Positions 864-48,188 of a DNA stretch of 50,230 nucleotides are shown here, piece by piece. A program made the position numbers and the translations under genes. Positions within the stretch are counted from its first letter, which is position 1; each line of letters starts with the position of its first letter. The DNA is taken from assembly GCA_001822815.1 (NCBI GenBank), contig MHSR01000025.1, positions 1 through 50,230 of the forward strand, written 5' to 3'. Origin of the DNA: Candidatus Terrybacteria bacterium RIFCSPHIGHO2_01_FULL_43_35. GTDB taxonomy: Bacteria; Patescibacteriota; Minisyncoccia; Terrybacterales; GWB1-40-14. Under the pieces are notes generated by a model. The model had not been told where the DNA came from. It did no database searches and worked only from the letters and a program-made list of their open reading frames with translations.

Positions 864-1535
864 ATGCACAAGACATTTTTTGCCGCCAATCCAAAACATA
901 AAGAAGTATTGGTCATACTGAAGAAAACATATCCCGAGGCTACAATAGCTTTAAAGTACGGCAATAATATCCAACTCTTGGTGGCGGTTATTCTATCTGC
1001 CCAATGTACGGACAAGAAGGTTAATGAGGTTACGGGAGATTTATTTAAAAAATATAAAACCGCGAAAGATTTTACGAATGCCAATATCAAAACTTTTGAG
1101 CAGGAAATAAGATCAACCGGTTTTTATCATAATAAAGCCCGCAATATTATTGCCGCCTGCAAAATAATTGAAAAGAGTTTTAACGGAGAGGTTCCCAAAA
1201 CCATGGAAGAAATACTAACTTTGCCTGGGGTAGCGCGCAAAACCGCTAATGTTGTTCTCGGCAATGCGTATGGAGTAGTAGGGGGCATTGCGGTAGATAC
1301 GCATGTTAAACGTCTATCTCAACGTTTAGGATTCTCACAATATGACAATCCGATAAAAATAGAAAAGGACTTAACGGAACTTTTCCCGAAGAAATATTGG
1401 TTTGGCTTAACTTATATCCTAATTGAACACGGTCGAGCCATTTGCAAGGCGCCAACACCACTATGCGAAAAGTGTCCTGTGGCAAAATTATGTCCGACAG
1501 GAATTAAACGCCAGGGTTTAAATGTAAAATTATGA
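864..1535 (+). CDS. nth: endonuclease III
   Basis: LVAVILSAQCTD, HhH LPGVARKTAN, AVDTHV, C-terminal 4Fe-4S C-x6-C-x2-C-x5-C. Confidence 0.97.
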   Translation: MHKTFFAANPKHKEVLVILKKTYPEATIALKYGNNIQLLVAVILSAQCTDKKVNEVTGDLFKKYKTAKDFTNANIKTFEQEIRSTGFYHNKARNIIAACKIIEKSFNGEVPKTMEEILTLPGVARKTANVVLGNAYGVVGGIAVDTHVKRLSQRLGFSQYDNPIKIEKDLTELFPKKYWFGLTYILIEHGRAICKAPTPLCEKCPVAKLCPTGIKRQGLNVKL

Positions 1536-21131: not shown

Positions 21132-21206
21132 CTTATTGATCAACTTAAAAATAATATACGGATGGATAGTATATGTCAATACGGCTAACATTGCACGACA
21201 TCAATT

Positions 21207-21578
21207 ATGGAACTTACTTTCTGGAAAAGAAATAAAACTAATCAGAAAGATATATGGATAGCCATAACGGTTGCTTTAATGGTATCCGGTTCTTTTTTCG
21301 CTGGCTATCTTTTGGCGCCAAACCCAGAAAAAGGCGCCTTAATCGTCCAAAATATACCCGAAGAAGCCTTAAAAATAGGGGATAATTCGGCTATTAATAC
21401 CCCTCAAAACGGCCCAAAACAGGTCCTAGGAGCCTTTTTCGGCTCAAGGGATGGGAAAAAGTACTACCCTTTAACTTGCCCCGAAGCGACTAAGATTTCC
21501 GAAGATAAGAAAGTCTGGTTTATCTCCAAAGAAGAAGCAGAATCGGCTGGATATCAACCATCTAAAACTTGCTTTTGA
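21207..21578 (+). CDS. membrane-anchored protein with C-terminal Ada metal-binding-like domain
   Basis: N-terminal TM; GSRDGKKYYPLTC....ISEDKKVWF.SKEEAESAGY.P..C. Confidence 0.8.
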   Translation: MELTFWKRNKTNQKDIWIAITVALMVSGSFFAGYLLAPNPEKGALIVQNIPEEALKIGDNSAINTPQNGPKQVLGAFFGSRDGKKYYPLTCPEATKISEDKKVWFISKEEAESAGYQPSKTCF

Positions 21579-21637
21579 AGTCGATTCTAGGCTTTATAGC
21601 CTAAAAATAAGCATTTTCTAAAAAGGGGGATCTAAAT

Positions 21638-21665
21638 TTGACAAAATTTTATTTTGTGCTATAAG
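21638..21665 (+). promoter_or_regulatory. sigma70 promoter for ORF 21708
   Basis: TTGACA-N16-TATAAG with TGn extension; AAGGAGG SD before ATG 21708. Confidence 0.65.
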
Positions 21666-21707
21666 GTTGTATACAGAACCTTAAAACGTCTTAAAGGAGG
21701 CCGTTAA

Positions 21708-22052
21708 ATGCCGGAAGTCGCAAACGGATGGAATGCGCATTGCAAAGAATACAGAAAGGCGGTAGGAAAGGTTCCGTCGGGGGATTTATATGCAATTGTT
21801 CTGGTTGTTTCAATTGAAGATCATCCCGAATTGAACCATGCTGAATACTGCGTTCGCTTGGGACAGAAAGACGGCCATTCTGAAATCTCTTTATCGAGCT
21901 TTCTGCCGATAGTATTGCGGACAATAACACCAACAGATAAGGATTGGCAAAAGAACTGCAGATTAAATCTTGCCGCAGAAGGATTTGGTGACGCGCCATA
22001 TATGGAATATCCAATTACGGTACGTTGGAAGCCAAAAAGACTTCTCGTATAA
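21708..22052 (+). CDS. hypothetical protein
   Basis: Strong SD and promoter; no recognised motif. Confidence 0.7.
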   Translation: MPEVANGWNAHCKEYRKAVGKVPSGDLYAIVLVVSIEDHPELNHAEYCVRLGQKDGHSEISLSSFLPIVLRTITPTDKDWQKNCRLNLAAEGFGDAPYMEYPITVRWKPKRLLV

Positions 22053-22151
22053 CAAGGATAGGGGGGAATATGCCTTTTATCCTTATTTATTTGACATATT
22101 GCGTCGTACAATATATCTTTCGCGACGCGAAATGAGCCGCTATTTAAAGTC

Positions 22152-22800
22152 TTATTTAATATCCTTATAAAAAGGCTTATAGTTTAGGGGTTCTGATAAT
22201 GGTTCTATCTTTTTTATTGTATTCAAAAAGTCATCTATTGATATTATTTTTATATTTTTCGCTAATTGGTTCTTTTTTCTGCTTATAAACAAATCTACAT
22301 CAGAGATATCTATCTCAGAATTTGCATATACAAAATAAATATCTATCTGCGAATCCATATTCTTATATACCCTCTCCTTTATATTAACCGAACGTTTTAA
22401 AGACCTAATAGAATCCGGATAAAAGATATCTACCGCGAACGTTTTATTCTTTGCATAAATCACAAAATCTGGTCTAATATTAATTCCAATATTTCCTCCC
22501 ATTGTTTTCCGCGTTGACCGATGAGTTTTGCTAAGGAGCTCCTAGTTTCGCCTTTAGTGAAATCTGTAATATCAAATCCTAATAATTCTCTTAATTTTTA
22601 AGTCCACCAAAATTTCTTTGGATTTGCCTAGAGCTTGGTAAGTATTTATAATCATCTACATCAAATGTTGTGGGATAACGACCGTTTTCTTTATAAAATA
22701 GATCAAAGCCTTGTTTTATTTTCTCTAAATCCCAATATTTTTCTAAACCACTCCATTTATACTTGCGTTCCGAAATATTTCTTAAATTTTTATCACGCAT
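22152..22800 (-). pseudogene. disrupted AT-rich gene, PD-(D/E)xK-nuclease-like C-terminus
   Basis: ORF 22800-22591 continues after a 1-nt shift in an A5 run as KLRELLGFDITDFTKGETRSSLAKLIGQRGKQWEE; a second frame change leads to NIRPDFVIYAKNKTFAVDIFYP. Confidence 0.65.
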
Positions 22801-22812
22801 AAATAATTCCGA

Positions 22813-23169
22813 TCAAACTTTATTTACCGGTTGAATTGCCTGCAGAATGATCAAAACAACTTCCTTGAAGGCCGTAAGTAATATCGTGAATATTTTGAAA
22901 GCTACATTGCTTATTTTCTCTATTGTTGCCGAAGGTATATTTGACAGACCGAGATCTTTGAGACTGGGCAAAAACTTAGATCCCAATTTTAAAAATGAAT
23001 CGCTTGAACCAGAAACTGATATATTATTGCCGTTAACAGAAACATTTATTCCCGGCCCATCACTTTGAGATTCAACATCTGCGGCGTGACTAAATTTAAA
23101 AATAAACACGGAAAAAACTATGGCGACGATCAAAAAAGTGTATTTTTTAAAACTCGTATATTTAATCAT
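22813..23169 (-). CDS. secreted/membrane hypothetical protein
   Basis: Signal peptide ending SHA; 4 nt downstream of the M23 gene. Confidence 0.7.
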   Translation of the reverse strand: MIKYTSFKKYTFLIVAIVFSVFIFKFSHAADVESQSDGPGINVSVNGNNISVSGSSDSFLKLGSKFLPSLKDLGLSNIPSATIEKISNVAFKIFTILLTAFKEVVLIILQAIQPVNKV

Positions 23170-23173
23170 AACT

Positions 23174-24409
23174 TTATAAATATTCTAAAGGATCCAAATG
23201 TCCTCCTAGGGGTAATGGACCATACCATCTGTCGATAACTTCAAAAGTGCTTGTTGCATAAACCGTAAAATGTAAATGCGAACCGGTCGAAAAGCCAGTT
23301 GAACCCATGAAACCGATTACGTCACCCTTACTTACGGTTGCGCCAACCGATACGGCTTGTTTAGAAAGATGCGCATACAAAGTAATGAGTCCATTTTTAT
23401 GATCTATGGCAACCCATTTGCCATAAGCGTATCGTCCATCATTCCCAACCGCTATAACCTTCCCGTCCCCGGCTGAATATATTGGCGTGCCCAAACCGGT
23501 TGATGGTGCCAGATCTATACCGTTATGGAACTGATAGCCGTCATTTATAAAACCTGTTTCAGATGTGGGACCGTAATACTGTGTTATCCGGACTTCGTTA
23601 ACGGGCCAGGATAAAATCCCTTTCCCTTTAGGCAAAGAACTAGGATCTATAGCAAAACGCAATTTGGCTTCCAGCGCTATTATGTTTTTTTGAATTTCTG
23701 TCTGCTGCGATTCTAATTGCTTAACTGATTTTTGGTATACGGTTTCTTGTTGACGGGTATCCTTCAGCAGTATATTTTTTTCTGAACGCTGATCTTCGGT
23801 TAATTCTTGTTGCAAGGTTAATTGCGTCCGTAAAGCAACTAGATTGTTTTCTTGGGCCTTAGCATCCGCTTCATCCTTAACTAAATTAGCCGATAATTCT
23901 TGAGCAACATTAAGGCGCGTCTTAAGTTCTCCTTCCAATTTCTGAACGCTATATAAGTTTTGAAACATTGAGCTTAGACTCTTGGCGTTTAAGGAAAGTT
24001 CTACTATATCCGGTGGTCCAGTCTCATAAATTAATTGCAGGGTTGAAGCAATACGGCTTTTCTCAAGATTTATAGCTTCTTGGGTCTGTTTAATTTTGAT
24101 TTCTATTTCTTCTATTTTTAATTTGACCTCATCAATTTGTTCTTCGGTTACGGCTATCTCAAGTTCAAGAGCCTCTATTTGTTTATTGAATTTATAGATT
24201 TGATTTTGCAATGATCTCTCCTTACTCTGGGCTTCAGCTAAGCTCTGTTTGGCTTCAGCGGCTCTTTGCTGTAAATCCTTAACTTCCTGACTTTTAGCTG
24301 CTATCTGCTGACGTAAATCGTCTATTAATCCTCCGTTCGCGACAAAAGGCAATAAAAACAAAAAGCCCATAAATATAAGGGCAAAAATTGTATGGAGATG
24401 CCTTCCCAT
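23174..24409 (-). CDS. coiled-coil M23 peptidase (EnvC/NlpD-like)
   Basis: Long heptad region; HNGID, YAHL, STGSHLHF. Confidence 0.92.
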   Translation of the reverse strand: MGRHLHTIFALIFMGFLFLLPFVANGGLIDDLRQQIAAKSQEVKDLQQRAAEAKQSLAEAQSKERSLQNQIYKFNKQIEALELEIAVTEEQIDEVKLKIEEIEIKIKQTQEAINLEKSRIASTLQLIYETGPPDIVELSLNAKSLSSMFQNLYSVQKLEGELKTRLNVAQELSANLVKDEADAKAQENNLVALRTQLTLQQELTEDQRSEKNILLKDTRQQETVYQKSVKQLESQQTEIQKNIIALEAKLRFAIDPSSLPKGKGILSWPVNEVRITQYYGPTSETGFINDGYQFHNGIDLAPSTGLGTPIYSAGDGKVIAVGNDGRYAYGKWVAIDHKNGLITLYAHLSKQAVSVGATVSKGDVIGFMGSTGFSTGSHLHFTVYATSTFEVIDRWYGPLPLGGHLDPLEYL

Positions 24410-24466
24410 ATATTAATGATAACAGAAAAACGTCTTTGATGTAAATTCTAACAAGTTAAAAAGGCC

Positions 24467-25057
24467 TTAAATAAGGCCTTGTTCTTCGATTGCCGCGCAG
24501 GCTTTTTCAAGTTCTTGGGCAAGATATGCATTTGTCTGTCTGGCTAATGGGATAAAAAACTCTTTTGTTTCTTTCAGGTTTCGTGCCTGTTTATCTGGAG
24601 TGCAAGCGCTCAAACTTCGTACGTTATCCAAACGGTCAGCTAATTTGAGTATTTTTACATCTTCCGTTGCGTTCGCAATATTAGCAAGATAGGTTTTCTT
24701 CTGACGTTTGTTGGGTTTAGGATCCTTGGTCAGCAAACGCACGAGTCTGTATACCCTCGGACCAAAAATCCTTTTTAAGTCTTTCCACGTAAGCAAAAAG
24801 GTGTCTTCCATTACGTCGTGAAGTAAAGCGCTTTCATGCATTTCCACATCCCATATGCTCAATTCATCACCAAGAATACGAGCTACTCTTTTGGGATGCT
24901 CGAAATAGCGTTCGCCGCTATCTCGCCATTGATTACGGTGGCCGTATTTTGAATGCCTATAAGCCAAACGGGCACGCTCAAGTTTTTCTTCGGAAATCCC
25001 ATCATTATGATCTTTAAGACTTTTTGCAAATACCAACTCGCCGCGCTGTACTCGCAT
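24467..25057 (-). CDS. stand-alone RelA/SpoT-type HD hydrolase (small alarmone hydrolase/Mesh1-like)
   Basis: R.SGERYFEHP, ALLHDVMEDT, LTK, KLADRLDN; GAGGTG SD before ATG 25057. Confidence 0.88.
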   Translation of the reverse strand: MRVQRGELVFAKSLKDHNDGISEEKLERARLAYRHSKYGHRNQWRDSGERYFEHPKRVARILGDELSIWDVEMHESALLHDVMEDTFLLTWKDLKRIFGPRVYRLVRLLTKDPKPNKRQKKTYLANIANATEDVKILKLADRLDNVRSLSACTPDKQARNLKETKEFFIPLARQTNAYLAQELEKACAAIEEQGLI

Positions 25058-25101
25058 GACACACCTCATTTTTCAAAGAAGGTGCGTAATTTATAACACG
25101 T

Positions 25102-26607
25102 TTAATTAATTTTGGCAACGGCCTCATCAATGCGTTTTAAAGTCTCTTTTCGGCCTAAACTTTTCGCTATTTCAACCGGACCGGGAGATTTATCTAGACC
25201 AGAAAGAGCTACCCGCATCGGCCACAAGACGGCTCCCCTATCCCCATATTTTTGGGCAAGATCCATAACGTCGATTTCAATACGCTCATCCCAATCATTT
25301 TCATTGATATGCGAGATTATCTCTTTAATTTTAATAAGCGCGGTTTTGGCTTCAGCTAAACTTTTCATTTTTTTCCACAATAATAAAGTACTGTCGTAAG
25401 GCGGCGTATTCTCTAAAAATGAAAAAAGTTCTGGAATATGTGGAATGTCCGACGGCCCGTGCAGACGTTGTTCTATCATTCCAAGCATTGCAGTGGCGGC
25501 GTTTGCATTAGAGATAATATGGGCTGGAATAAATTCTTTTATCAGTTCGCGACGCAAATCTACGTCTTTAGGGGTCAACCAACGGTTCTCTTTATGCTTA
25601 TGATAATAATCATCTAACCAGTTAAGTTTATTGTGATCAAATATCGCTCCGCTCTTGTGAATGCGTTCAATAGAAAATTCTTTTGTTAAGTCGTCCAGCG
25701 AAAATATCTCTTGCTCCGTTCCAGGATTCCAACCGAGCAACGCTACAAAATTCAATACCGCCTCGGGATAATAACCTTTAGCAAGATAGTCTTCTACCGC
25801 AACATCACCCTGCCGTTTTGAAAGCTTGGAACGATCGGGGTTCAATAGTAAAGGCAAATGAGCAAAATAAGGCACTTGCCAGTCAAATGCTTTATATAGC
25901 AAAACGTGCTTTGGGGTTGATGGCAACCACTCTTCGCCACGTATTACATGCGTTGTTCCCATTAAGTAATCGTCAATTATGTTTGCCAAGTGATATGTTG
26001 GATAACCATCGCTTTTTAACAAAACATAGTCGTCAAGGAGCTTATTCTGGAAAGAAATCTTGCCGCGTATCATATCCTCAAATGTTGTTTCGTCGCCTTG
26101 GGGCATTTTGAAACGAACGACAAATTTCTCTCCAGCAGTTTGTCTTTTTTCAATCTCTTCTGCACCAAGCTTGCGACAAAGTCGATCATAACCCGTAGGA
26201 ATTTTTGCCCCTTCCTGTTCTTGGCGCAATTTTTCAAGCCGTTCTGGCACACAAAAACACGGATAGGCCTTACCGCTAGCTATTAATTGATTGGCGCTCT
26301 GTTGATAGATTATAAGGCGTTGGGACTGTAGATAGGGGCCAAAATCCCCCTTCTGTTCAATATGATCATTTTTTAAAAACGGACCTTCGTCATGCTCTAT
26401 GCCCATTGCGACAAGTGTTCTTAAAATATTTTCCGCACCTCCTTCCACAAAACGTGATTGATCCGTATCTTCAATACGAATATAAAAAACTCCCTTATGC
26501 TTACGTGCAAAAAGAAAATTATAAAGCGCCGTGCGAAAATTACCCACATGCATCATCCCCGTTGGTGAGGGCGCATAACGCACTCTTACTTTTTTACCTG
26601 TTTCCAT
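25102..26607 (-). CDS. gltX: glutamate--tRNA ligase
   Basis: RYAPSPTG.MHVGN, RIEDTD, RGEEW, KLSKR; GGAGG SD before ATG 26607. Confidence 0.97.
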   Translation of the reverse strand: METGKKVRVRYAPSPTGMMHVGNFRTALYNFLFARKHKGVFYIRIEDTDQSRFVEGGAENILRTLVAMGIEHDEGPFLKNDHIEQKGDFGPYLQSQRLIIYQQSANQLIASGKAYPCFCVPERLEKLRQEQEGAKIPTGYDRLCRKLGAEEIEKRQTAGEKFVVRFKMPQGDETTFEDMIRGKISFQNKLLDDYVLLKSDGYPTYHLANIIDDYLMGTTHVIRGEEWLPSTPKHVLLYKAFDWQVPYFAHLPLLLNPDRSKLSKRQGDVAVEDYLAKGYYPEAVLNFVALLGWNPGTEQEIFSLDDLTKEFSIERIHKSGAIFDHNKLNWLDDYYHKHKENRWLTPKDVDLRRELIKEFIPAHIISNANAATAMLGMIEQRLHGPSDIPHIPELFSFLENTPPYDSTLLLWKKMKSLAEAKTALIKIKEIISHINENDWDERIEIDVMDLAQKYGDRGAVLWPMRVALSGLDKSPGPVEIAKSLGRKETLKRIDEAVAKIN

Positions 26608-27754
26608 AAAAATTTTCCTCCTGGTTGGATAAATCAATTATTATTTTGGCAATTATCGTTGTCGCTTCCGGTTTGGCAAAACTTTTGGCGGCTTGAGCCA
26701 TTTGGGACAACATCAACGGATTGGCAAACAATTCTTTTGTTTTTTCTAAAAATATATGCGGAGTGGCATTATCACCCAAAAGCATAATACTCGCGCCGAT
26801 TTTGGTATATATTTCTGCGTTTTTGAGCTGGTGGTCGCCTGCTGACCCTTGGAGAGGAATAAGAATGCTTGGCTTGCCGGCCAGAGCTATTTCAAATATT
26901 GATCCTGCCCCTGCCCGACTTATTATAACATCGGAAGATTTATAAGCCTCAACGAGTTCTTCTGCGGAAAGAAAAGGCCGCAGATGATAAAACTTGGCCA
27001 GCTCCGGATTTTTCTCAAGAACCGTTTGTGATTCAAGCGACATATCCTTAAAATTTTTATCGCCGCATTGATGAATAATATCGGCAAAACCCAAGAGTTG
27101 CGTGAGGGTTTCCATAATAAGCGCGTTTATTTCTTGCGCTCCTTGACTGCCGCCTAAAACCAGAAGCGTTTTTCGTATCTTTGAATTATCATGCGATGTA
27201 TCCAAAAACTTAGAAAATTCGCTGACTATTTCTTTTCTTATTGGGTTGCCAGTCAAAACTGTTTTACTTTGTGGGAAAAATATCTTGCTAGATGGGAAAG
27301 ATAAGACTATTTTGCTAGCCAGATGCGAACTAATTTTATTGGCTAATCCAGGAACTGCATCGGATTCATGAATTAAAATCGGTATCTTAAATAACCAGGC
27401 GGCTAATACCGGGCTAAAACCTCCAAAGCCACCTTTACTGAATACTACATCCGGCATGATTTTCCACATATGCCATATTGCTAAAACGATAGATACGGGA
27501 ATCTTAATCATTTCCCATAAGATTTTTGGCGTAAAATAACGCGGAATTTTCCCAGCGGGTATTATTATGACTTTGATTCCCAAATGCTTCAAAGCGTCCA
27601 CGCCAAATCCGTTAGGTCCTAAAAAATAAATATCTATATCTGTATCTGTAAGAATGCTTTTCAATTCCGAGATAAGGGCAATAATGGGAAACATATGACC
27701 ACCAGTACCGCCTCCAGAAACAACCAAGCGAAAATTTTTAAGATTAGCGTTCAT
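26594..27754 (-). CDS. murG: undecaprenyl-PP-MurNAc-pentapeptide GlcNAc transferase
   Basis: GGGTGGH, HESD.VPGLAN, GNPIR, GGSQGA, HQ.KNA. Confidence 0.96.
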   Translation of the reverse strand: MNANLKNFRLVVSGGGTGGHMFPIIALISELKSILTDTDIDIYFLGPNGFGVDALKHLGIKVIIIPAGKIPRYFTPKILWEMIKIPVSIVLAIWHMWKIMPDVVFSKGGFGGFSPVLAAWLFKIPILIHESDAVPGLANKISSHLASKIVLSFPSSKIFFPQSKTVLTGNPIRKEIVSEFSKFLDTSHDNSKIRKTLLVLGGSQGAQEINALIMETLTQLLGFADIIHQCGDKNFKDMSLESQTVLEKNPELAKFYHLRPFLSAEELVEAYKSSDVIISRAGAGSIFEIALAGKPSILIPLQGSAGDHQLKNAEIYTKIGASIMLLGDNATPHIFLEKTKELFANPLMLSQMAQAAKSFAKPEATTIIAKIIIDLSNQEENFYGNR

Positions 27755-28848
27755 GCTTCTTCGTTAATTCTAGATATGCCAAAAATTACTCCTATAGAAA
27801 TTAAAGTTATGGCTAAAGACGATGAGCCGTAGCTTACAAAAGGCAGGGTTATGCCAACCAAAGGCGTCAAAGACAAATTACCCGCCATATTCAATAATGC
27901 CTGTATTACTATCCAGGACGTCAAACCGAAAGCAAAAAGTTGTAAGAATTCGCTTGATGCGCGTAATGCTATCCTAAAACCTCGCCAGGCTAATAAAACA
28001 AACATAACAATAAAAGTTGCTGAACCCACAAGACCAATTTCTTCCCCCATTACTGCAAATATTGAGTCACCAACGGGCTCAGGTAAATACAAGAATTTTT
28101 GTCTAGAAAAACCAAAACCGCGTCCAGTTAGTCCGCCAGAACCTATGGCTAGCGTTGCCTGACTTATTTGATAGCCATGTCCCAACGGATCTGACCCCGG
28201 GTTAATAAAAGCCGTCAATCGGTTCAAACGGTATGGAGCTACCATAATCAACAAAATAAGAACAAGCGCACCTAAACCAAGGGTTCCAAAAATATGTTTC
28301 ATTTTAGCTCCAGCAACAAACAGCATGGCCAAAGCCGTAAACGACAAAACGCCTAAAGTGGAGATGTCCGGCTGCAAAATCAAGAATATACCTACTGTTC
28401 CGGAAATGGCCAAAAATGGTAACAAGCCTTCTTCAAATGAACCAAGTTCATCTTTATGTTTAGAGAGCCAAGCCGCCAGATAAAGTATAAATGTAAATTT
28501 GGCTATTTCGGCAGGCTGAAAACCTAAAGGCCCAAACGATATCCAACGATGAGCGCCGCCTGCGCCATAGCCAACGTCAGGAATAAAAACTAATACTAAA
28601 AGTAGTATGGTCAAAACCATAAGCGGAAAAGCTAAAGCTCTCCACAATCCTTCTTTGATGCGTGAAGCGACGAAACCCAACAAAAGCCCCAAGGGAAGCC
28701 CAAGTATCATCTGGCGTGAAATATAATAAAATGGCTGATCAAAATCCGCAGTCCCTTGAACCACGGAGGCGCTGGTTAACACCAAAAGTCCGCTACCAAG
28801 CAAGGCTAGGGATAAAAAAATTAAAATTCTATCGCCTTTGAAATTCAT
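27751..28848 (-). CDS. ftsW: SEDS family cell division protein
   Basis: RWI, FQPAE.AK, QPD, GYQ, LPE..GDSIFA, TLPFVSYGSS; located between murD and murG. Confidence 0.94.
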   Translation of the reverse strand: MNFKGDRILIFLSLALLGSGLLVLTSASVVQGTADFDQPFYYISRQMILGLPLGLLLGFVASRIKEGLWRALAFPLMVLTILLLVLVFIPDVGYGAGGAHRWISFGPLGFQPAEIAKFTFILYLAAWLSKHKDELGSFEEGLLPFLAISGTVGIFLILQPDISTLGVLSFTALAMLFVAGAKMKHIFGTLGLGALVLILLIMVAPYRLNRLTAFINPGSDPLGHGYQISQATLAIGSGGLTGRGFGFSRQKFLYLPEPVGDSIFAVMGEEIGLVGSATFIVMFVLLAWRGFRIALRASSEFLQLFAFGLTSWIVIQALLNMAGNLSLTPLVGITLPFVSYGSSSLAITLISIGVIFGISRINEEA

Positions 28849-28851
28849 AGT

Positions 28852-30267
28852 TCAGAGTTTTATGCTAAAAACAGCATTTTTGAATTTATCTCCGCGATCA
28901 AATTCATGAGCAAAAAGGTTAAACGATGCGGCTCCGGGGGAAAGCAAAACTATATCTCCGGCTTCGGCTCGTGCTCGAGCTTCTTTAACTGCTATATCTA
29001 AATTGTTTATACCCTTGATAAACTTATTCCAGCTTAAATTGTTTAATTCTTTAAGCAAGGCGTTTGAAGCCGAACCCTCTAATAATATTAAAAATTTGAT
29101 GCCCTTAACTATTTCTTCAGCCAAAAAAGCATAAGAAAGATTTTTATTTTCGCCTCCGGCAATCAAAATAATCCTATCTTTCGGGTATGAATTTATTGCC
29201 GCATAAGTTGCATCGGGAGTTGTAGATGAAGTATCGTTTATATATCTTATGCCGTTCAATACAGCTAACTCTTCAAGGCGTCCTTGAGGAGGTCTGAAAG
29301 AAATTATTGCCTCGCGTACAATATCGGCATGGATATCTTTTATTGGCGAATCTGGATGCTTTAGAATTGCCCCTATTGCCGCAACGGCCGCAACAACATT
29401 CTGTGTATTATGACGTCCCTTAAGCGGTATATCCTCTACGTTCATCAGTGCTGTCTGTCCAAAAAAATCGGAGAATATACGACCATCATTAATAAAAACT
29501 GCCAATGGAGTTTCCGATGAATCCCCTGCCGTACTGAAGAATTTTATACGGCTCTTGCTGTTTCGTGAAGCAGTTTTAACATATCTGTCATCAAAATTTG
29601 CCACCAAAAAATCTTTTTTTGTCTGAAATTTAAAAATCAATTTTTTGGATTCGCCATACTCTTCCATAGAACCATATCGGTTCAAATGATCCGGCAAAAG
29701 ATTCAAAAAGGCAGCAACTTGAGGACTCCAATTATGGCCTTCTAGATCCTCTAGTTGCCACGAAGAAAGCTCCAAAACGACCACATCTTTTTTTTTGATC
29801 TGCGGCAGAATTTCAAGAACAGATATCCGTATATTTCCGGCAAGTAATGTTGCAACACCGGCCGTCTTTAAAATATGCGCAATAAGTGAGGCTGTTGTGG
29901 ATTTGCCCTTTGTACTGGTAATACCCACGGTAAACGCCAAGTTGCGTTCAACAAATAACCCGATATCGCTGGTTATTTTTATTCCGTGGGCGCGGGCTAG
30001 AACAAGCCAAGGAGAATTTACCGGCACGCCAGGGTTTTTAACTATTAAATCCGCCTCAATAAAATCGTCCTTGTCATGTCTGCCCAAGATAAAACGCACC
30101 GGCAAACCCTTTAACGCTTCAAGAGCCGGCGCCAATTTATTTTCATCACGTAAATCGGTTGCGGTGATAACCGCGCCCTCTTTGGCCAAAAATTTTATTG
30201 TTCCGATCCCACCGCCATGCAAGCCTATACCCATTACGGTCACCTTTCTATTTTTGAGACTTTGCAT
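28852..30267 (-). CDS. murD: UDP-MurNAc-L-Ala--D-glutamate ligase
   Basis: KNPGVP, GITSTKGKSTT, ELSSWQL, PDHLNRY, LLSPGAASF. Confidence 0.95.
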   Translation of the reverse strand: MQSLKNRKVTVMGIGLHGGGIGTIKFLAKEGAVITATDLRDENKLAPALEALKGLPVRFILGRHDKDDFIEADLIVKNPGVPVNSPWLVLARAHGIKITSDIGLFVERNLAFTVGITSTKGKSTTASLIAHILKTAGVATLLAGNIRISVLEILPQIKKKDVVVLELSSWQLEDLEGHNWSPQVAAFLNLLPDHLNRYGSMEEYGESKKLIFKFQTKKDFLVANFDDRYVKTASRNSKSRIKFFSTAGDSSETPLAVFINDGRIFSDFFGQTALMNVEDIPLKGRHNTQNVVAAVAAIGAILKHPDSPIKDIHADIVREAIISFRPPQGRLEELAVLNGIRYINDTSSTTPDATYAAINSYPKDRIILIAGGENKNLSYAFLAEEIVKGIKFLILLEGSASNALLKELNNLSWNKFIKGINNLDIAVKEARARAEAGDIVLLSPGAASFNLFAHEFDRGDKFKNAVFSIKL

Positions 30268-40702: not shown

Positions 40703-43246
40703 TTATCTGTTGGTTTCTCCGGGCACGAATGTTGCCGGACCGCTGGTATTTGCGGCAAGCTTAGAACGGCTGAATATCTCGTTTTCAACTTCTGCTTTGG
40801 GCCGGCCCCAGCGCATACGCGAAAGTTCTTTCAATGCCGCTATCGCATCCGGATTACCAGGACTTGGCGGAAACAATTCGGTATTGAACGGCAGGGTATT
40901 TTTACCGTGTACCATTAATTTCACATAATTACTGAAATTATCTATATTAACCAAATCTCGCTCATTAAAAACCGGGGCGAATTGTTTAACCAAAAACTCT
41001 GCATCCTTTGAACCTACACGGAAAGAAATTATTGATCCCACGTTGCCAAAAACAGCTTCGCGTATCTGATCGCTTAATTGCGAAATAAATTGATGAGCAA
41101 TTATTAGATCCAGTTTGTATTTCCGCGCTTCGGAAAGAATAGTAGATATAGAATCGGTCGTGAAATTCTGAAACTCGTCCACATAAAGGAAGAAATCTTT
41201 GCGGTGTTCTTCGGCCATGCTGGCGCGGGACATGGCCGCCATCTGCATTTTGGCAACCAGCACAAGACCCAAAAGCGATGAGTTGACTTCACCGGTTTTG
41301 CCTTTAGAAAGATTGGCTATGAAAATCTTGCCGCTATCCATTATTTCTTTCAAGTCAAAACCCGACTTTGCCTGACCGATTATATTCCGCAGCATTTCAT
41401 TCTCAACAAAACGGCCAACCTTGGAAATAAGATAACCCAACATTTCTGACTTATGAAACTCTGTAGTTTTAGCCATCTCTTTTTCCCAAAAAGCCTTGAC
41501 CATGGGATCACGGACTTTTGCGACTTTGGTGGCGGCGAAGACTTCATCAGTAAAAATGCGCGGTATTTCAGCTATGGTACCCGGATCTTCGGCATCGGCC
41601 ATTAGAGTAAGCATGGCATTGCGCATATTGTGTTCAAACATGGGGCCAATTACTTCTGGTGGAAACAACTTTTCAAAGATGCGGATCATTTCTTGCACCG
41701 CAAAATCTTTTTGCTCCGACGTTTTCCACTCAAGCATATTTAAGCCTATTGGTCTTTCTGTATCTGAGGGATCAAAATATATCACGTCTTCGGCTCTTGT
41801 ACGCGGTACAATCGCAAGAACACTGTCGGCCAAATCACCATGCGGATCAATTACTCCAACGCCGTTCCCGGCAAGTATATCCTGACGAATCATTTCCTGC
41901 AGAAGCGTGGTTTTACCTGTTCCAGTTTGACCTACTATATAAAGATGTCTTCTTCTGTCTTCAATAGCCATGCGCACTAAGGTTTCTTGGCCGCGATAAA
42001 TGTTACGGCCAAGGATAATACCTTCTTTGGACAAATCAACCGGTGGGGCAGACGGCCTAGCTTTAAGAAACTCTACTTTCGGCGTATCCAATGGAACGTT
42101 GGGAAAATGAAATATGCTGGCGATTTCCTCGGAACTTAAAGCGATGCTTTCTTCCGACCTGAATATCCTGAAAGCGTAGCGGAATAAAAGATTTTGCAAG
42201 GACTTGCCGCTTTTGCGCCTACTTCGGAAACTATTCAAATGCGGGTCGCTGAACTGCGCAAAAGCGCCTTCCATATGGATTAAAATCTCTTCGGCTTCGG
42301 GTTCGCTTGGCGCCGAAGCTATAAGTCGTATATTTGTATCAAAAAAAAGTTTTGAGCTTTTGTTTTCTACGGCTTTAATGATCTCCTGATGCATTGGGGT
42401 TATGGGTTGTTGGGATTCCGCAAACCATGGCGTACTTGCGTTGAGAGGACTCATGCGATTTTGTTGCTGTTGCGTTGCTTGGCGCTGCATTTCCTTATTG
42501 CTTTTGCCACCCAAAACTTTACCCATCTCGATTAAGACAGAATGAACGCTGACAGTGACTTCTCTTTTGGCTCTGAAGAAATCGTGGCCGCTTTTTTGCA
42601 TTTGTTTAGCTATCCTTACACTCAACTTTCTTTTTCTGTTGCCGCCCGGTCGTACAACTAACTGTATCGCTGCGCCCTCGCCGGTCTCTTTTAGTTTGCT
42701 TAACGCGTTGGTTATGGTTTCTAAAGGATCTACTTCAAGATTACGGTAAGTTTTTATAGGAAGCGCCCAATGATTAGATAAGACAAGAGTTGCTCCGGCG
42801 CTAATGCCTTGCGGATGAAAAATGTTGTAATCGTTAATTGGCATTATTTCGGCATCAGGATAAAGGCCGTGCACGGCTTTTTCAAAGGCGCTAACCCAAC
42901 GCCGTGGAGCGGCATAATAAAAAGTTATCTCCTCGCCTACATTTGGACTGGCGATCTCAAAAACAATATACGGCCGGCCCAAAATTAATCCTAATATCCC
43001 ACGTTCGCGCATCTGTGTGATACCTGACAATAATTGTTCCATAATACCTATCAAATCCTTTTGGGATCTTTGTTGCTTTTCGCCTACTTCCCTTTCAGTA
43101 AAAACTCTGGGCAGTCGCACTCTTACCAAAGTTAAATTAAGCGCGCGTATTAAAAGATAGTGTTCGCTTAAACGAGAAAATATAAAATAACCCGCCAAGG
43201 CTAATATTCCGACGAAAATAAAAAATATCATATGTGCTTTACTCAA
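40703..43246 (-). CDS. membrane-anchored HerA/DUF87/VirD4-TraD-like ATPase
   Basis: N-terminal TM; RRHLYIVGQTGTGKT, VIDPHGD, LYVDEFQNF, SEARKY, AHQ..SQL, GNVG. Confidence 0.9.
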   Translation of the reverse strand: MSKAHMIFFIFVGILALAGYFIFSRLSEHYLLIRALNLTLVRVRLPRVFTEREVGEKQQRSQKDLIGIMEQLLSGITQMRERGILGLILGRPYIVFEIASPNVGEEITFYYAAPRRWVSAFEKAVHGLYPDAEIMPINDYNIFHPQGISAGATLVLSNHWALPIKTYRNLEVDPLETITNALSKLKETGEGAAIQLVVRPGGNRKRKLSVRIAKQMQKSGHDFFRAKREVTVSVHSVLIEMGKVLGGKSNKEMQRQATQQQQNRMSPLNASTPWFAESQQPITPMHQEIIKAVENKSSKLFFDTNIRLIASAPSEPEAEEILIHMEGAFAQFSDPHLNSFRSRRKSGKSLQNLLFRYAFRIFRSEESIALSSEEIASIFHFPNVPLDTPKVEFLKARPSAPPVDLSKEGIILGRNIYRGQETLVRMAIEDRRRHLYIVGQTGTGKTTLLQEMIRQDILAGNGVGVIDPHGDLADSVLAIVPRTRAEDVIYFDPSDTERPIGLNMLEWKTSEQKDFAVQEMIRIFEKLFPPEVIGPMFEHNMRNAMLTLMADAEDPGTIAEIPRIFTDEVFAATKVAKVRDPMVKAFWEKEMAKTTEFHKSEMLGYLISKVGRFVENEMLRNIIGQAKSGFDLKEIMDSGKIFIANLSKGKTGEVNSSLLGLVLVAKMQMAAMSRASMAEEHRKDFFLYVDEFQNFTTDSISTILSEARKYKLDLIIAHQFISQLSDQIREAVFGNVGSIISFRVGSKDAEFLVKQFAPVFNERDLVNIDNFSNYVKLMVHGKNTLPFNTELFPPSPGNPDAIAALKELSRMRWGRPKAEVENEIFSRSKLAANTSGPATFVPGETNR

Positions 43247-47864: not shown

Positions 47865-47950
47865 ACACTTAATTATAAGGCTTTAAGGCACACCCTCAAA
47901 GCGCTGGTTTACCAGCCAAAAAACGGCCTCGTTTAGAAAATTTTACTATT

Positions 47951-47959
47951 TGTGGATAA
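47951..47959. promoter_or_regulatory. consensus DnaA box
   Basis: TGTGGATAA (reverse complement of TTATCCACA); second copy at 48180-48188. Confidence 0.45.
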
Positions 47960-47987
47960 CTACACTATTATGTGCGTGTTAATATAA

Positions 47988-48014
47988 AAATGAAGCGAAA
48001 AAATCGCTTCATTT
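47988..48014. other. perfect 11-bp hairpin immediately 5' of the tRNA-like gene
   Basis: AAATGAAGCGA-AAAAA-TCGCTTCATTT. Confidence 0.75.
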
Positions 48015-48017
48015 CGC

Positions 48018-48102
48018 TGGCTCCTTGCTGACTTTGGAAGTCAGGCTAATCCTTAAAATTAGTTTCGTGGGGCGAATAGAGGTTCGAATCCTCGGGAGCC
48101 AA
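48018..48102 (+). tRNA. non-canonical tRNA-like gene, 8/4 fold, long D and V arms, anticodon TTA
   Basis: Acceptor TGGCTCCT/GGGAGCCA; D CTGACTT/AAGTCAG; anticodon stem CTAAT/ATTAG with loop CCTTAAA; V TTCG/CGAA; T GAGG-TTCGAAT-CCTC; no encoded CCA. Confidence 0.8.
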
Positions 48103-48110
48103 TTACACTT

Positions 48111-48145
48111 AAGTCACCTAAAAACGGGTGGCTTTTGTGTTTTTC
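48111..48145. terminator. terminator after the tRNA-like gene
   Basis: AAGTCACC..GGTGGCTT followed by a T-rich tract; the GuaB-family gene converges on it. Confidence 0.7.
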
Positions 48146-48179: not shown

Positions 48180-48188
48180 TGTGGATAA
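48180..48188. promoter_or_regulatory. consensus DnaA box
   Basis: TGTGGATAA. Confidence 0.4.

Follow-up and report, generated by a model that had tools for sequence, protein, structure and literature searches.

What does a tRNA-like gene with a stop-reading anticodon do in a bacterium that ends most of its long open reading frames (ORFs) with the codon concerned? The question is raised by an 85-nt gene at 48018–48102 on the forward strand of contig MHSR01000025.1 (C25) of Candidatus Terrybacteria bacterium RIFCSPHIGHO2_01_FULL_43_35. The window is the whole of this 50,230-nt stretch, which is one of 25 contigs in an 827-kb assembly (GCA_001822815.1) that is 98% complete. The anticodon of the predicted RNA is UUA, which reads UAA. 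An earlier reading made from the letters alone, here called the sequence-only reading, had proposed that the locus may specify a conditional or factor-dependent ochre recoder. The analysis establishes the structure of the RNA and the orphan status of its gene; it further shows that TAA serves as a normal stop and that partner genes are absent. The gene is a real, tRNA-derived gene with the build of selenocysteine tRNA (tRNA-Sec) and of allo-tRNAs, and it belongs neither to a genetic-code change nor to a selenocysteine system. The reading favoured here, with a confidence that falls a little short of even, is that it is an allo-tRNA-like orphan whose product is at most a feeble suppressor of UAA and UAG, or is effectively idle, and that stands outside any recoding system.

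Structure of the tRNA-like RNA

The only tRNA gene that ARAGORN calls in the window is a tRNA-Stop, anticodon tta, at exactly 48018–48102 on the plus strand. Genome-wide, the program reports 50 tRNA genes, including this tRNA-Stop(UUA), and a transfer-messenger RNA (tmRNA). Both the ARAGORN drawing and the minimum-energy structure computed with RNAfold are cloverleaves. The 5' strand of the acceptor stem, UGGCUCCU (48018–48025), pairs with 48094–48101, although T48018 is possibly position -1 instead. The 3' strand, GGGAGCCA, occupies 48094–48102 together with a discriminator A; CCA is not encoded and no C74 follows. In the ARAGORN drawing the acceptor helix has 8 bp, with a U-A pair at the top and a U.G pair at the bottom, and is followed by two linker bases. 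The D arm (48028–48044) pairs CUGACUU with AAGUCAG, either as a 7-bp stem with the loop UGG or as a 6-bp stem with the loop UUGGA. All of its pairs are Watson-Crick, and in the alignment with the tRNA-Sec model it falls on that model's 6-bp D stem. The G18G19 of a canonical D loop is present as GG at 48036–48037. The anticodon arm (48045–48063) has five Watson-Crick pairs and the loop CCUUAAA, in which C33 is at 48052, UUA is at 48053–48055, and A37 and A38 are at 48056–48057. RNAfold allows a sixth pair, G48045.U48063, and such a G26.U44 pair can be found in ordinary tRNAs too. A long variable arm of 13 nt (48064–48076) contains a 4–5-bp stem, UUUCG..CGAA[A], according to ARAGORN, RNAfold and the Rfam alignment. 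The T arm (48079–48093) has a 4-bp stem, GAGG/CCUC, and the loop UUCGAAU; GGTTCGAATCC at 48081–48091 agrees with the canonical T-loop consensus GTTCRANYC. In the RNAfold structure the cloverleaf consists of an 8-bp acceptor, a 7-bp D stem with a 3-nt loop, a 6-bp anticodon stem, a 5-bp variable stem and a 4-bp T stem. The RNA differs from a canonical elongator tRNA in having C at 48052 instead of U33 and a 4-bp T stem instead of a 7/5 branch.

These details agree with what the sequence-only reading had described: an 8-bp acceptor and a 4-bp T stem with a TTCGAAT loop (a 7/4 register also fits), a 6–7-bp D stem with a tiny GG loop, a long variable arm, and a perfect 5-bp anticodon stem with the loop CC-UUA-AA and C at position 33. 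Direct reading of the sequence reveals that placing the anticodon loop in the register of a Leu UAA anticodon loses all five anticodon-stem pairs, and that in a 7/5 fold the T stem would contain an A.G mismatch and the acceptor and D stems would be separated by three bases.

The cloverleaf is also difficult to ascribe to chance. The fold energy is -31.3 kcal/mol compared with -22.3 (sd 3.1) for shuffled sequences (z = -2.9), and 2 of 200 shuffles fold equally well. ARAGORN false calls do occur, and 9.9 Mb of dinucleotide-shuffled genome yielded one, which has mismatched, G.U-rich stems. In addition, the general Rfam tRNA model does not list the gene. Against these two points in favour of a chance cloverleaf or a misregistered sense tRNA (for example a Leu-UAA tRNA with a 7/5 fold) stand approximately 30 pairs, the perfect GGTTCGAATCC T loop, a match to the tRNA-Sec model at an E-value of 6.5e-6, and the loss of pairing in both the UAA register and the 7/5 fold. 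This explanation is close to refuted and is hardly credible.

Covariance models place the RNA in the tRNA clan at some distance from its ordinary members. With Rfam gathering thresholds, no match was found anywhere in the window. An E-value search of a 351-nt segment gave no tRNA-clan match, which a narrower search later revealed to be a loss at the filter stage. In that 105-nt search, which uses laxer filters than the 351-nt one, tRNA-Sec (RF01852) is the best tRNA-clan model, with 34.8 bits over the full model and 48017–48102. The score is below the gathering score of 47, and the RNA is thus not assigned to the tRNA-Sec family. The general tRNA model (RF00005) gives 52 matches genome-wide at E<=10, in which the 49 other tRNAs score 49.5–75.8 bits and tRNA-Stop(UUA) is not listed. 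The tRNA-Sec score alone is not special, since RF01852 run alone on 150 relatives scores ordinary class II tRNAs at 44–55 bits and is thus not discriminating. The notable point is that the tRNA-Sec model outscores the general tRNA model for this RNA. Since tRNA-Sec is the best clan model and the general model omits the RNA, the models describe it as tRNA-like, Sec-shaped and far from a canonical tRNA.

Possible relationship to tRNA-Leu

A covariance model built from the gene, with a self score of 115.7 bits, was used to look for its nearest kin. Of the 14 loci other than the gene itself that score best across 150 class genomes, 12 are canonical tRNA-Leu genes (CAG/UAG/AAG), one is a tRNA-Ser and one is a tRNA-Trp. 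Within its own genome, tRNA-Leu(CAG) is the top match at 38.2 bits, followed by Leu(UAA) at 31.6, Ser(CGA) at 28.1 and the Tyr genes at 20.4 and 14.3; the Leu genes of the genome span 15–38 bits on this model. Identity to 17 tRNA-Leu genes in a MAFFT alignment is 39–59%. The T arm is that of the lineage's Leu(CAG/UAG) tRNAs, except for one loop base and the absent position 65, and the D-loop motif UUGGAAG is common to the gene and to its own genome's Leu(CAG). The gene has the A73 and the class II arm of tRNA-Leu and lacks a Leu anticodon. Taken together, these similarities suggest descent from a Leu-type class II tRNA.

A simple route can be proposed. Loss of one T-stem base, at position 65, would turn a 7/5 tRNA with T(-1):A73 into an 8/4 one; changes that compensate each other on the two strands of the D arm would have followed, as would a new anticodon loop. 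The tRNA-Leu of the lineage has a 3-bp D stem and a large loop where this gene has its long stem. The long, perfect D stem is the sole Sec-like feature that is not explicable by ambiguity or decay. With seven Watson-Crick pairs where the lineage tRNA-Leu has a 3-bp stem and a large loop, it looks selected or inherited, not decayed.

Stop codon usage, release factors and partner genes

TAA is the commonest stop, as the sequence-only reading had noted: it ends 378 (65%) of the ORFs of at least 150 aa (n=581), with TAG ending 106 and TGA 97. Under code 11, each of the 45 window ORFs searched is open, and 37 have matches in ordinary core-gene families, among them mur, ftsW, ddl, mraY, two aminoacyl-tRNA synthetases, L9, priA, fmt and def. 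Pairs of frames separated by a single stop, each frame of at least 100 codons, are divided by TAA in 42 of 67 cases, which is the background share. The three most suggestive cases of a TAA-interrupted gene are all separate genes (PrkA|DUF444, an unknown ORF|LeuRS, and NusG|L11) and were rejected. No back-up-stop signature was found after TAA; extensions and the identity of the next stop are as after TGA or TAG. The next in-frame stop after TAA, TGA and TAG lies at a median of 11, 10.5 and 11.5 codons, respectively, and is TGA in 21%, 24% and 22% of cases.

RF1 is encoded at C16:2965–4035 and has the P-E-T tripeptide. The only carriers of an RF-1 domain in the genome are RF1 and a 148-aa ArfB-like protein; this ArfB-like rescue factor and tmRNA are both present. 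RF2 was not found in the assembly, though TGA ends 97 of the 581 long ORFs. Of 25 relatives, 18 have an RF2 above the prfB cut-off, the sister species among them, and the RF2 neighbourhood of this species has no counterpart in the assembly either. Given that RF2 is present in relatives and that its neighbourhood is also missing here, the absence is probably an assembly or binning gap and not a feature of the code.

No dedicated partner for the RNA was found. In this 98% complete assembly selA and selD have no match, and the selB model matches four ordinary translational GTPase genes, all below its cut-off. An extra copy of EF-Tu was not found in the genome. Searches of the class IIa, Ia and Ib aminoacyl-tRNA synthetase families returned one gene per expected enzyme and no paralogue. 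The genome contains miaA, so that A37 could be modified, and the A36-A37-A38 context is suited to the reading of UNN codons. A gene of the FemAB family (aminoacyl-tRNA-dependent peptidoglycan bridge transferases) is located at C13:81153–82154. The family occurs in 29 of 41 class genomes searched, including G001–G003, which lack this RNA. A link between the two was rejected, the enzyme being common in relatives without the RNA.

The proposal of a conditional or factor-dependent ochre recoder thus gained no support. The searches it called for gave neither selA nor selD, no extra copies of aminoacyl-tRNA synthetases or EF-Tu, and selB matches limited to sub-cut-off GTPases; in-frame TAA is at background and the three cases checked are separate genes; RF1 is present, and no back-up-stop signature was found.

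Acceptor register, distribution and population sequences

Several observations weigh against the favoured reading, and the first of these concerns the acceptor stem. The eighth acceptor pair is T48018:A48101. Comparison with the layout of all 49 other tRNA genes of the genome reveals T at -1 in 33 of the 49, and in 26 of the 32 that have A73. The locus could accordingly be read in an alternative register, in which T48018 is T(-1), G1 is 48019 and A73 is 48101; the acceptor then has 7 bp and the T stem 4 bp, giving an 11-bp branch (7/4). This 7/4 reading also fits the letters, since T(-1) with A73 is normal in the tRNA genes of this genome. The 12-bp rule used by Mukai et al. (2017, Nucleic Acids Res, PMC5389517) would favour cleavage one base upstream and hence 8/4, with the 5' end predicted from that rule. 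A pairable combination of -1 and 73 is found in 39 of the 49 canonical tRNA genes, a striking uniformity that may reflect RNase P or 3'-end processing in the lineage.

The 3' end is also unlike that of native tRNA genes. A C follows the discriminator directly in 49 of the 49 other tRNA genes; here the base is T (8/4) or A (7/4). The lack of this C points either to a foreign origin or to handling unlike that of native tRNAs and, together with C33, argues against an efficient, integrated decoder. The discriminator is A73 in either register (48102 or 48101), whereas most of the allo-tRNAs described by Mukai et al. have G73 or U73, which is a serine identity (PMC5389517).

The gene is also an orphan, and the collection of homologues that the sequence-only reading had recommended came back empty. 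BLAST of the 85 nt against 60 relatives gave T-arm matches and no full-length homologue. Apart from the gene itself, the highest score with the gene-built model was 40.4 bits among 150 class genomes and 41.8 bits among 150 genomes from across the phylum, and neither set yielded a homologue. In the same-genus genome G001 the flanking genes are in the same order and orientation, with nucleotide identities of 69% (P-type ATPase) and 74% (IMPDH; 82% at the protein level). The syntenic spacer in G001 consists of approximately 680 nt of unrelated sequence with no tRNA. This spacer (C13, 6120–6800) contains a 69-aa minus-strand ORF and several hairpins in place of the tRNA.

Broader searches gave a similar result. 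Three DNA-pattern scans of contigs, with one genome per species, yielded nothing, and an IMPDH-protein-based scan of the same scope yielded distant phyla only. Three pattern scans of viral contigs gave 0, 0 and 4 chance matches, without tRNAs, and a single scan of metagenome contigs gave one unrelated match with no ARAGORN tRNA call. BLAST against 50,697 phage records produced only a 25-nt T-arm match, and against plasmid records nothing useful. Within the genomes and contigs covered, the gene occurs only in a single species-level lineage of a groundwater bacterium with a small genome. Features reminiscent of a tRNA in the metagenome match (1159–1217, minus strand) are its T arm, the 3' end ...GGTACCA and TCCTTAAAAT, which resembles an anticodon loop; the stretch probably represents a chance match or a fragment. 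The core-gene syntenic neighbours, and the failure of these phage and viral searches to yield relatives, speak against a phage-borne suppressor tRNA.

Near-identical DNA was found in 19 sequencing runs from 13 groundwater or soil studies, indicating that the population is real. None of the runs listed for the locus is an RNA run. The contigs of four runs are near-identical over the locus and hence offer no diversity usable for covariation; the same sequence, including C33, is present in contigs of three public runs. The sole population variant also counts against the favoured reading: a G>T change at 48036, the first G of the D-loop GG, in one contig at a depth of approximately 4.

Flanking sequences and other features of the genome

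The gene has candidate signals on both sides. A promoter-like site, TTTACT-18-TATTAT (47942–47971, plus strand), is located 47 nt 5' of the gene and is defined by consensus match (9/12 in a consensus scan). A perfect 11-bp hairpin (47988–48014), detected as an inverted repeat, lies three bases 5' of the gene; by inspection, its T run is on the minus-strand side. Downstream on the plus strand, a terminator-like hairpin with a T run (48111–48134, the feature extending to 48144) has nine pairs, four of them G-C, and the tail TTGTGTTTTT. The terminator reported by the sequence-only reading is thus present as a terminator-like element. A DnaA-box-like 9-mer, TGTGGATAA, occurs twice in the same orientation (47951–47959 and 48180–48188), 229 bp apart, and brackets the tRNA gene. 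Genome-wide there are 24 copies of this 9-mer compared with approximately 9 expected, including a small cluster at C5:1427–3104.

The neighbours of the tRNA gene are core genes in synteny with the sister species, and no toxin-antitoxin or transposon gene was found among them. No paralogue of the intergenic region was found elsewhere in the genome. Further upstream in the window, amid cell-wall synthesis genes, an 847-aa protein with a TrwB/VirD4-type coupling-protein ATPase domain is encoded at 40703–43246 on the minus strand.

Other tRNA loci of the genome have features of their own. Two sub-threshold RF00005 matches, at C9:3192–3245 (21.3 bits) and C19:1775–1850 (15.8 bits), are not called by ARAGORN; the former, immediately behind tRNA-Ile(GAU), is perhaps a truncated tRNA. 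Contig C24 contains twelve tRNA genes at 21143–29108, nine of them in a tight array at 27089–28333. CCA is encoded by eight of these nine, whereas most tRNA genes in the rest of the genome lack it. The C24 genes duplicate isoacceptors found on other contigs and include two tRNA-Ile(UAU) and a 77-nt tRNA-Leu(UAG) with a short variable arm. The set may be a mobile or foreign tRNA island.

Proposed pathway and alternative explanations

If the favoured reading is correct, transcription of the gene would start at its own promoter-like site and end at its own terminator. Cleavage by RNase P at a distance of 12 bp from the T loop would leave an 8-bp acceptor, and CCA would be added in full after transcription. 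Charging by LeuRS would be favoured, given A73, the long variable arm and tRNA-Leu as the nearest sequence kin; TyrRS might charge it instead, through U35 and A73. Decoding would be poor owing to C33 in place of the near-invariant U33, to a codon-anticodon pair made up of A and U alone, and to competition from RF1. With such poor decoding the RNA would have feeble suppressor activity at most, which would be tolerated because it is weak.

A different account sees the locus as a pseudogene, a paralogue of a class II tRNA of the Leu type that lost nucleotide 65 to give a 7/4, 11-bp helix, acquired a mutated anticodon loop, and is unprocessed, uncharged and functionless. Much of the evidence can be read this way: the T arm is that of the lineage tRNA-Leu minus position 65, identity to the 17 tRNA-Leu genes is 39–59%, tRNA-Leu supplies 12 of the 14 best model matches in relatives as well as the top match in the genome itself (Leu(CAG), 38.2 bits), T(-1) with A73 is the normal layout (26/32), and the gene is an orphan with C33 and no C74. 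However, decay does not make a perfect 7-bp D stem, and the departures from tRNA-Leu in the D arm lie on both strands and compensate one another. The remaining stems are intact, the T loop and the D-loop GG are preserved, and the Leu kinship is weak, with the genome's own Ser(CGA) at 28.1 bits within the 15–38 bits of its Leu genes. The argument of the sequence-only reading that the pairing of all stems speaks against decay stands for the D stem; it is weakened by the orphan status, C33 and the missing C after the discriminator. A pseudogene is therefore regarded as rather unlikely. The RNA may alternatively be functional without decoding: it could supply an aminoacyl group to a non-ribosomal transferase, for instance the FemAB-family enzyme, or act as a regulator or as a decoy for tRNA-targeting factors. 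A stop anticodon, C33 and a Sec-like shape would keep it off the ribosome, a FemAB-family gene is present on contig C13, and charged allo-tRNAs unused in translation are among those reported by Mukai et al. (PMC5389517). Set against this are the lack of co-occurrence with FemAB (29 of 41 genomes, including the RNA-less G001–G003), the lack of toxin-antitoxin or transposon neighbours, and an orphan status that leaves no conservation signal; such a role is unlikely.

Biological use as an ochre suppressor, with conditional expression or charging and with programmed C-terminal extensions or readthrough of specific TAA codons, can be weighed on similar grounds. An intact cloverleaf flanked by promoter-like and terminator-like sites, an optimal A37-A38 context with miaA present, the presence of tmRNA and the ArfB-like rescue factor, and the efficiency in E. 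coli of amber-converted allo-tRNAs, as described by Mukai et al. (PMC5389517), are all consistent with it. Yet TAA ends 65% of long ORFs, no TAA-interrupted gene, back-up-stop signature or dedicated factor was found in the genome, position 33 is C, and the gene is absent from the sister species. Such use is distinctly improbable. A narrower version, in which a matured 8/4 tRNA charged with Leu or Tyr is used as a deliberately attenuated natural ochre suppressor, with C33 as the attenuator, is a long shot. If true, it would be the first allo-tRNA-type nonsense suppressor in the candidate phyla radiation (CPR), and a living example of a 7/5 tRNA turned 8/4 by deletion of a single T-stem base, T(-1) and A73 being paired already.

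The favoured reading, that of an allo-tRNA-like orphan of feeble or no activity, has implications of its own. If the RNA is expressed, the host range of allo-tRNAs would be widened, and the locus would offer a compact case for whether such RNAs decode. The example is notable for its very small genome, core-gene setting, ochre anticodon, A73 and rare C33, and the alignment with tRNA-Leu suggests a simple route from 7/5 to 8/4. If the RNA is idle, it serves as a caution against taking a gene finder's call of a stop-anticodon tRNA as evidence of recoding.

Comparison with known systems

Among natural tRNAs, no others than allo-tRNAs are known to have an 8/4 or 9/3 helix. Allo-tRNAs serve as chassis for engineered selenoprotein and code-expansion systems, and their natural role is unsettled. 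In the account of Mukai et al., their defining traits are an 8/4 or 9/3 split of a 12-bp branch and a long variable arm; the D stem is long and capped by a tetraloop, the anticodon stem is lengthened, and the distribution is sporadic (PMC5389517). Their anticodons cover 35 codons, and the UAA-reading anticodon UUA is reported among them, named in that text for 9/3 species. Some, converted to amber suppressors, suppress efficiently in E. coli, and other members are inactive; some are described as charged and yet unused in translation, with regulatory roles proposed. Many of their genes are near toxin-antitoxin or transposon genes, and the hosts named are Clostridia, Proteobacteria and Acidobacteria (PMC5389517; likewise the review PMC7609411). 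A literature search revealed no report of an allo-tRNA or ochre suppressor for Patescibacteria; one paper, on a phage tRNA-Gly(UCA), contains both "suppressor tRNA" and "Patescibacteria". The statement of the sequence-only reading that no description exists in the lineage thus agrees with the literature found for this phylum, although UUA allo-tRNAs have been described in other phyla.

Compared by described features, the gene resembles allo-tRNAs in the 8/4 split of its 12-bp branch (subject to the alternative placement of T48018:A48101), the long variable arm, the tRNA-Sec-like long D stem of 6–7 bp, a possible sixth anticodon-stem pair, a UUA anticodon unrelated to any likely charging identity, and the sporadic distribution. 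In addition to its discriminator, it differs in C33, in a D loop of 3 or 5 nt compared with a tetraloop, in its host phylum, in lacking a toxin-antitoxin or transposon neighbour, and in combining the ochre anticodon with an 8/4 form, whereas UUA is named for 9/3. The host's 0.83-Mb genome, its relatives of 0.5–1.3 Mb and its habitat fit the CPR/Patescibacteria.

The RNA resembles selC (tRNA-Sec) in its 8-bp acceptor, 6-bp D stem with a small loop, anticodon stem of possibly 6 bp, long variable arm and stop anticodon. The acceptor branch of tRNA-Sec is given as 13 bp, 8/5 (PMC7609411), whereas it is 12 bp (8/4) here; the anticodon is UUA in contrast to UCA, and the discriminator is A73. An identity as tRNA-Sec was ruled out by the 12-bp branch, the anticodon, the discriminator, the sub-threshold score and the lack of selenocysteine machinery. 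The likeness to both tRNA-Sec and allo-tRNAs pointed out in the sequence-only reading nevertheless holds, in that tRNA-Sec is the best clan model and the features agree with those described in PMC5389517.

With class II tRNA-Leu (CAG/UAG) the gene shares a length of 85 nt, the discriminator A73, T at -1, a variable arm of comparable size and a near-identical T arm. It differs in its long-helix D arm, its 4-bp T stem, UUA with C33, the lack of C74 and an identity of only 39–59%. Classical ochre suppressors, such as E. coli tRNA-Tyr or tRNA-Lys with UUA, are canonical 7/5 tRNAs with U33 that arise by point mutation of a sense tRNA. Like them, the RNA has an anticodon that would read UAA and, by wobble, UAG, and the A37-A38 context; unlike them, it has a Sec-like architecture and C33.

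U33 is described as almost invariant in elongator tRNAs, with eukaryotic initiators (C33) and the Candida tRNA-Ser(CAG) (G33) given as exceptions (PMC5041475). The Candida tRNA, as described there, is similar to the gene studied here in that its anticodon conflicts with the standard code and position 33 is not U. It is different in being eukaryotic, in reassigning a sense codon and in combining G33 with a canonical fold, where the present gene has C33. On this comparison of features, the gene would best be filed as a variant of the allo-tRNA kind.

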